Positions 10,181 to 10,329 of a stretch of DNA of 64,000 nt are shown one piece after another (position 1 is the first letter of the stretch; each line of letters starts with the position of its first letter). The DNA comes from Escherichia coli (lineage in GTDB: Bacteria; Pseudomonadota; Gammaproteobacteria; Enterobacterales; Enterobacteriaceae). A program made the position numbers and the translations under genes. The stretch lies in the NCBI RefSeq assembly GCF_041886205.1, contig NZ_CP169029.1; one strand, written 5' to 3'. The notes under the pieces are model-generated. The model was not told where the DNA came from, did not search any database, and saw only the letters and a program-made list of their open reading frames with translations.

Positions 10181-10329
10181 GTTACGAATCCTTGAAAACT
10201 TGTCTCAGTCAGACCAGACAGTCACACACAGTGGAAGTGTGCTAAGTATAGCCCTGATTAAACATATTACGGGTAAGATCCCCCGCGATACTTGCAAGGA
10301 ATCTTACCCTTATTTATCCATCACGGGAA

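Follow-up and report, generated by a model that had tools for sequence, protein, structure and literature searches.

The pyrH-frr spacer in an Escherichia coli genome: a probably ancestral, element-free allele with hairpins that overlap the frr promoters

The spacer between pyrH and frr in the DNA analyzed here (the window, a 64,000-nucleotide stretch of an E. coli chromosome) is in all probability the ancestral, element-free form of this locus. Its hairpins overlap the promoters of frr, whereas K-12-type alleles carry an inserted repeat. The resulting difference in spacer length comes from the presence or absence of a small repeat, an ordinary polymorphism of a kind already known.

Results

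Layout of the spacer and its two hairpins

The minus strand of the window carries the gene order rpsB-tsf-pyrH-frr-dxr-uppS, and all features of the locus given below are on that strand. The open reading frame list places the pyrH (UMP kinase) coding sequence at 10330..11055 with a TAA stop at 10330-10332, and its product is identical to WP_000224573.1 according to the annotation of matching genomes. The frr gene (ribosome recycling factor), which has a GTG start, occupies 9623..10180 according to the same list and the annotation of the matching genomes. The spacer is thus the 149 bp at 10181..10329. The frr ribosome-binding site AAGGA was located by sequence at 10189..10193, and the block TTTCAAGGATTCGTAAC at this site is invariant in the alignment with Klebsiella and nearly invariant across Enterobacteriaceae spacers. 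A three-codon mini-ORF (ATG GAT AAA TAA) directly 3' of pyrH was dropped because it is not conserved in the outgroups. Rfam scans of the K-12 locus and the window spacer returned nothing meaningful.

The first-pass annotation of this DNA had described two minus-strand hairpins. Both are present in the sequence, although they lie 5-10 nt from the positions assigned to them. Hairpin 1 (10320..10341) is predicted by folding to have a 7-bp stem, ATCACGG/CCGTGAT, with arms at 10335-10341 and 10320-10326. The 8-nt loop, AATAATTC, contains the pyrH TAA stop, so the hairpin straddles the end of the gene and half of it is coding sequence. It therefore overlaps the stop codon as had been proposed, but part of it falls outside the 10181-10329 interval to which it had been assigned. 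Taken alone, hairpin 1 is only modestly above chance in E. coli (-10.1 kcal/mol, z = -2.6, with equally good folds in 3 of 200 shuffles).

Hairpin 2 (10271..10309) is a much stronger fold. The 9-bp arms as first seen, GGGTAAGAT at 10301-10309 and ATCTTACCC at 10271-10279, are real, but pairing runs further inward than had been described to give a 16-bp stem, GGGTAAGATTCCTTGC/GCGGGGGATCTTACCC, closed by the 7-nt loop AAGTATC. The energy is -27.0 kcal/mol (z = -6.5) and none of 200 shuffles folded as well. The stem includes three G.U pairs. Read from pyrH toward frr, the locus comprises hairpin 1 with the pyrH stop in its loop, 10 bases, the 16-bp hairpin 2, the frr promoters and the ribosome-binding site.

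The K-12 spacer contains a dispersed repeat

In the MG1655 sequence (NC_000913.3) the spacer between the end of pyrH (192580) and the start of frr (192872) measures 291 bp, versus 149 bp in the window. The earlier statement that the K-12 spacer is considerably longer was therefore correct. Direct alignment of the two spacers, the check that had been proposed, gave 142 extra bp in K-12 rather than identical lengths. The further suggestion that a repeat element present in K-12 is absent here also held, in that the extra 142 bp is a dispersed repeat. When a K-12-like genome was aligned with the window, a single 142-bp block differed.

The alignment puts the empty insertion site at the trinucleotide ATC (10277..10279), in place of which K-12-type alleles carry 145 nt, CGTAAGTCTGG...CCAGACGA. 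The element sits within hairpin 2, between the loop and the 3' arm. The junction is not that of a clean insertion, as the element replaces 3 nt and shows no visible target-site duplication. When folded, the extra DNA forms a long imperfect palindrome enclosed by the retained outer stem GGGTAA/TTACCC. NC_000913.3 has no repeat annotation at the pyrH-frr insert. One further variant, E. coli UTME-3 (L208), has the long allele minus 17 bp. The missing bases are exactly the segment between two 8-bp direct repeats, GCGTAAGT, one native and the other at the left end of the element. This looks like a slipped-strand deletion, which would have removed the inner hairpin together with the distal start site.

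Distribution and polarity of the two alleles

Only 2 of 5,426 complete E. coli genomes lacked the pyrH-frr locus. The long allele is present in 3,513-3,560 of the 5,424 (~65%) and the short allele in the other ~35%. Short spacers occur in IAI39 (phylogroup F), Nissle and ST131 (B2) and O157:H7/O55:H7 (E), and long spacers in K-12 (A), strain 042 (D) and Shigella boydii. Given this patchy spread over phylogroups, a single gain requires later recombination. The pattern fits an old polymorphism moved by recombination and by itself gives no polarity.

Polarity was instead read from outgroups, which were Salmonella, Klebsiella and 12 other Enterobacteriaceae species, with E. albertii, E. fergusonii and the cryptic Escherichia clades left out. 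The Salmonella, Klebsiella and Shigella spacers were drawn from PyrH cluster members. The spacer is 146 bp in Salmonella enterica and 150 bp in Klebsiella pneumoniae, both lacking the element. Among the matches listed, 10 of the 12 other species have spacers of 133-172 bp, and the element was found in 0 of the 12. The Klebsiella sequence CGCGGGGATATTGCCC is a contiguous homologue of CGCGGGGGATCTTACCC in the short allele. Moreover, the 3' arm reads CTTACCC in the outgroups and the short allele versus GATTACCC in the long allele. The uninterrupted Klebsiella homologue and the outgroup CTTACCC indicate that the short state is very likely ancestral and that K-12 gained the element.

The opposite history, in which the lineage of the window lost the element by palindrome-promoted or slipped-strand deletion, draws on the facts that long palindromes are deletion-prone, that deletions do happen at this locus (the 17 bp between the GCGTAAGT repeats in UTME-3) and that the phylogroups are patchy, D being long and E short. 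We consider it improbable. The element is absent from every outgroup species sampled, Klebsiella keeps an uninterrupted homologous hairpin, and a deletion would have had to recreate exactly both the ancestral ATC and the CTTACCC complementarity at a junction that has no microhomology able to yield the short sequence. Still less credible, to the point of being nearly negligible, is the idea that hairpin 2 represents a repeated palindrome such as REP/BIME, either as a solo copy or as a remnant. It is an intergenic palindrome of a size near that of REP units, but REP/BIME sequences are present in many copies, whereas the 110-nt hairpin 2 region occurs at one place per genome in 5,424 genomes, sensitive mode included. 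Neither the profile of the insert family nor the ERIC core matches hairpin 2, and the repeat-remnant interpretation was rejected. An ancestral short allele interrupted by a repeat in the K-12-type lineages thus remains the preferred history.

Other insertions were seen in the pyrH-frr spacers of other genera. True ERIC copies are present in Kluyvera genomosp. 1 (L019, 275 bp) and in Enterobacteriaceae RIT691 (L008, 274 bp). The Kluyvera copy has taken the place of the hairpin 2 3' arm, very near the insertion point of the E. coli element, and that of RIT691 lies between hairpins 1 and 2. The Brenneria spacer (L028, 254 bp) has a different insert. Related palindromic repeats have thus entered this spacer independently in different genera.

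Identity of the inserted repeat

In a sensitive search the family to which the insert belongs was found at 6 places in MG1655, and the median for E. coli genomes was 5. Next in similarity is a copy in the interval from the pheM leader to pheS (85-88% identity over ~121 nt). A scan of metagenome contigs with the palindrome centre gave 120 stretches, of which 48 were true members in at least 12 flank clusters. The conserved core of the family is ~110 nt, and the element at pyrH-frr is 142-145 nt. The outer arms are palindromic and vary from site to site, and again no target duplication is visible. Pfam analysis of the neighbors placed members between co-oriented genes, in intergenic or inter-cistronic spacers, the sites being dnaN-recF, upstream of rpoD, fliP-fliQ, mltA-ThiF family, pheM-pheS and pyrH-frr. 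In the metagenome set, loci L105, L132, L155 and L197 are at dnaN/recF, upstream of rpoD, at fliP/fliQ and at mltA/ThiF-family, in or beside core operons.

The insert was also considered as an ERIC sequence, and this identity was rejected. The centre of the insert, GGAGCGTACAAAAGTACGTGA, agrees with the ERIC-PCR primer core at 18 of 21 positions. When the insert-family profile was run, the two true ERIC copies of the window were the two best matches, but only over 21-30 nt and at E values of 0.095 and 3.4, neither significant. Of the ERIC1R/ERIC2 core (GTGAATCCCCAGGAGCTTACAT|AAGTAAGTGACTGGGGTGAGCG) the K-12 insert matches only these 18 of 21 central bases, and the window spacer gave no match to it. 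The imperfect intergenic palindrome expected of an ERIC is found in the K-12 insert, which the window does not contain. Since only the centre resembles ERIC, the insert represents a separate family that shares the ERIC central motif.

The insert probably belongs to the RSA/BEE95 family. RSA was described in the 1990s as a repeat of ~150 bp with 6 copies in K-12, and the K-12 insert fits in both size and copy number. The insert thus has the low copy number (6 in MG1655) and the ~150 bp length that we take to mark the family. Literature searches for an RSA/BEE95 reference sequence did not find one, and the match rests on size and copy number. That a dispersed enterobacterial repeat family called RSA, also named BEE95, exists is taken from a reference cited in PMC3751351.

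Both ERIC copies of the window lie outside the pyrH-frr spacer. One is in the rpsB-tsf spacer at ~12175-12275 (minus strand), with a core at 12213-12254 that agrees with the primer core at 38 of 42 positions. That spacer is itself polymorphic, being 257 bp in the window, K-12 and strain 042 versus 134 bp in IAI39. Just downstream of this ERIC copy, at ~12110-12135 (minus strand), is the canonical rpsB-tsf terminator hairpin, GGGGGCC-TGCATAT-GGCCCCC followed by TTTTT, whose counterpart in K-12 is the Term-seq 3' end at 190800. The second copy is at ~54860-54950 (plus strand), with a core at 54868-54908 matching at 40 of 41 positions. Its right half is intact and its left half appears truncated or replaced.

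The frr promoters overlap the hairpins

The frr promoter was reportedly the subject of a 1991 paper by Shimizu and Kaji. In K-12, Cappable-seq mapped transcription starts at 192617 (score 93.9), 192797 (39.7), 192814 (868.8) and 192855 (3.0) (PMC4782308 supplement). The strongest of these, 192814, corresponds to window position 10238 and lies 7 nt past the hexamer TATACT (10245..10250). As this hexamer is invariant in the aligned Enterobacteriaceae, it is assigned as the -10 of the main frr promoter. The sequence CTATACTTAGC is likewise invariant in that alignment. The start at 192617 corresponds to window position 10293, the first base of the hairpin 2 loop, and lies 8 nt past TAAGAT (10301..10306). 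This hexamer is part of the conserved 5' arm of hairpin 2, and thus the arm is assigned as the -10 element of a more distal promoter of frr. Conservation across genera was seen for the block GGTAAGATTCC. Start 192797 is at window position 10255, for which TAATAT (10264..10269) is the probable -10.

Both the distal and the main start fall within the 6-9 nt past the -10 hexamer that is usual for sigma-70 promoters. The -35 elements are far less clear. The candidate for the distal promoter is TTCCCG (10324..10329), which is also in the 3' arm of hairpin 1. In E. coli and in outgroup spacers L006, L009 and L013, the distance from TT(T/C)CCG to the downstream TAAGAT is exactly 17 bp. However, TTCCCG is a weak -35 match (3 of 6), the other best candidate being CCCGTA. 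Consensus promoter scans called no promoter in either allele and saw no recognizable -35 at 16-18 bp. The main -10 is 51 bp downstream of the distal -10. The promoter sequences of K-12 and the window are identical except for the discriminator of the distal promoter. The short allele is expected to use the same frr start sites as K-12.

The element sits between the two frr promoters with its junction at about -39 of the main start. By this placement, long alleles have a different and more A+T-rich region from -40 to -60 and a distal 5' untranslated region longer by 142 nt.

Conservation of the hairpins and the sub-variant of the window

In nine Enterobacteriaceae sequences 85.7% of cells were paired in both helices versus 33-55% when the partners were slid. 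Each helix has one pair changed on both sides. In hairpin 2 an A-U/G-C change is at the base of the stem, and in Klebsiella the G-C pair that involves the G of TAAGAT has become U-A. The hairpin 2 homologue of Klebsiella folds at -24 kcal/mol (z -4.4) and homologues are found in other genera too, the Salmonella one being weak (-12.6 kcal/mol, z -2.5). Other genera keep hairpin 1 with the arms ACGGAA/TTCCGT, for which Enterobacter sp. Ag1 has the compensatory ACTGAA/TTCAGT; in Klebsiella the fold is weak (z -1.2). These few sequences give moderate support to structural conservation of both hairpins with compensatory changes. Note that in spacers L006 and L007 the 5' arm of hairpin 2 is kept although the 3' arm pairs poorly. 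A third small hairpin (e.g., GGCACC-TTTTAG-GGTGCT) lies between hairpin 2 and TATACT in L006, L007, L011, L013 and L015. It is absent from E. coli.

The window has its own version of hairpin 2. Three substitutions, at 10297, 10296 and 10294, make 10294..10297 read TTGC rather than the GCGT of K-12 and the common short allele, so that the 5' arm is CCTTGCAAGT in the window and CCGCGTAAGT in the others. This version is rare, with at least 99% identity in only 10 of 5,424 records. TTGC versus GCGT was considered as a divider of the short and long alleles and rejected, the change being private to this rare sub-variant of the short allele. The three substitutions are at -4, -3 and -1 of the distal frr start. 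They abolish a G/G mismatch to give a continuous RNA stem, the RNA fold being -27.0 kcal/mol in the window versus -25.5 kcal/mol in the common short allele. In contrast, the DNA fold is weaker (-11.4 versus -13.8). This opposite shift in RNA and DNA stability hints, if only weakly, that the form of hairpin 2 being maintained may be the RNA one.

Possible roles of the hairpins

All of the transcript data are from K-12, which has the long allele. SMRT-Cappable-seq detected both pyrH-frr and frr-alone transcripts, and the supplement of that work has no pyrH or frr entries. The K-12 Term-seq 3' ends are 190800, 192871, 192996 and 194843, and the lists contain no 3' end inside the spacer upstream of 192871. 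That position equals window position 10181; the end there precedes the frr GTG by one base, was seen in one condition with a score of 1760 and is listed as an 'orphan'. The end at 192996 is inside frr.

In RNA that reads through from pyrH the hairpins would be 3'-proximal structures that could act as a leaky terminator or pause site or as a barrier to 3' exonucleases, while overlapping the frr promoters. A stronger claim, that hairpin 2 alone or with hairpin 1 is the intrinsic terminator of pyrH and splits pyrH and frr into independent units, is rather unlikely in our estimation. The stem is what such a terminator calls for, being strong (-27 kcal/mol) with G+C-rich ends, and a scan reported one terminator-like site, which uses the sub-stem 10269-10286 and has AATATGTTTA as its tail; in Klebsiella, UGAUUUUCAUU comes after the homologous hairpin. 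However, one such site compares with 0.4 expected in shuffled sequence, and the stem is followed directly by GUAAUAUGUUUAAU, which is not a U-tract. Moreover, the K-12 pyrH-frr co-transcripts and the Term-seq ends given above, both from the long allele, argue against it. Hairpin 2 is probably not an efficient terminator.

The inverted repeats could also be bound, as double-stranded DNA, by a dimeric regulator of frr or pyrH, or be a by-product of the promoters, the RNA hairpins then having no role. In favor of this, a mapped start has its -10 in the 5' arm of hairpin 2 and its candidate -35 in the 3' arm of hairpin 1, and the former arm is conserved in L006 and L007 even with a poorly pairing partner. 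Yet the arms co-vary (G-C to U-A in Klebsiella, A-U/G-C at the stem base), several G.U pairs are of a sort that stabilizes RNA and not DNA, the sub-variant of the window goes toward stronger RNA and weaker DNA, and ~65% of E. coli have the arms 142 bp further apart without apparent harm. We regard the DNA-site explanation as doubtful. We are equally hesitant about a more ambitious proposal, in which hairpin 2 would function as an RNA/DNA element in connection with the distal frr promoter and would also be a recurrent landing site for ERIC-type palindromic repeats, the RSA-like element having landed there in E. coli and true ERIC in Kluyvera, with hardly any difference in position. Were it true, the insertion would have rewired how E. 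coli lineages express ribosome recycling factor, since it makes the distal 5' untranslated region 142 nt longer and exchanges the G+C-rich stretch from -40 to -60 of the main promoter for the A+T-rich end of the element. The leaky terminator, pause site or exonuclease barrier overlapping the frr promoters is the role that we favor.

Discussion

If the polarity given here is right, as we think very likely, the K-12 reference has the derived state at pyrH-frr, and about one third of E. coli, including B2 strains and O157:H7, have a spacer shorter by 142 bp. This is relevant when K-12 promoter and untranslated-region maps of frr, the gene of an essential translation factor, are applied to other strains. 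The locus also provides a clean pair of filled and empty sites for a repeat family that has received little study. The importance beyond annotation is small.

Several known systems resemble parts of this locus. Hairpin 2 is like an intrinsic terminator in being a stable stem-loop just past a stop codon and unlike one in having no U-tract and in the read-through seen in K-12. The K-12 insert resembles ERIC/IRU sequences (~127 bp) as a transcribed, intergenic, imperfect palindrome that is polymorphic among strains, but the likeness is confined to the central 21-30 nt and the arms are unrelated. It is like RSA/BEE95 in being an imperfect palindrome of ~145 nt, an element that the window itself lacks. 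Wilson and Sharp reportedly described in 2006 (Mol Biol Evol 23:1156) presence/absence polymorphism of ERIC among E. coli strains, with unclean junctions and a few unrelated bases at the empty site. The pyrH-frr locus is similar in its presence/absence polymorphism and its unclean junction, but here the repeat is of another family and the empty site is a conserved hairpin that overlaps a promoter.
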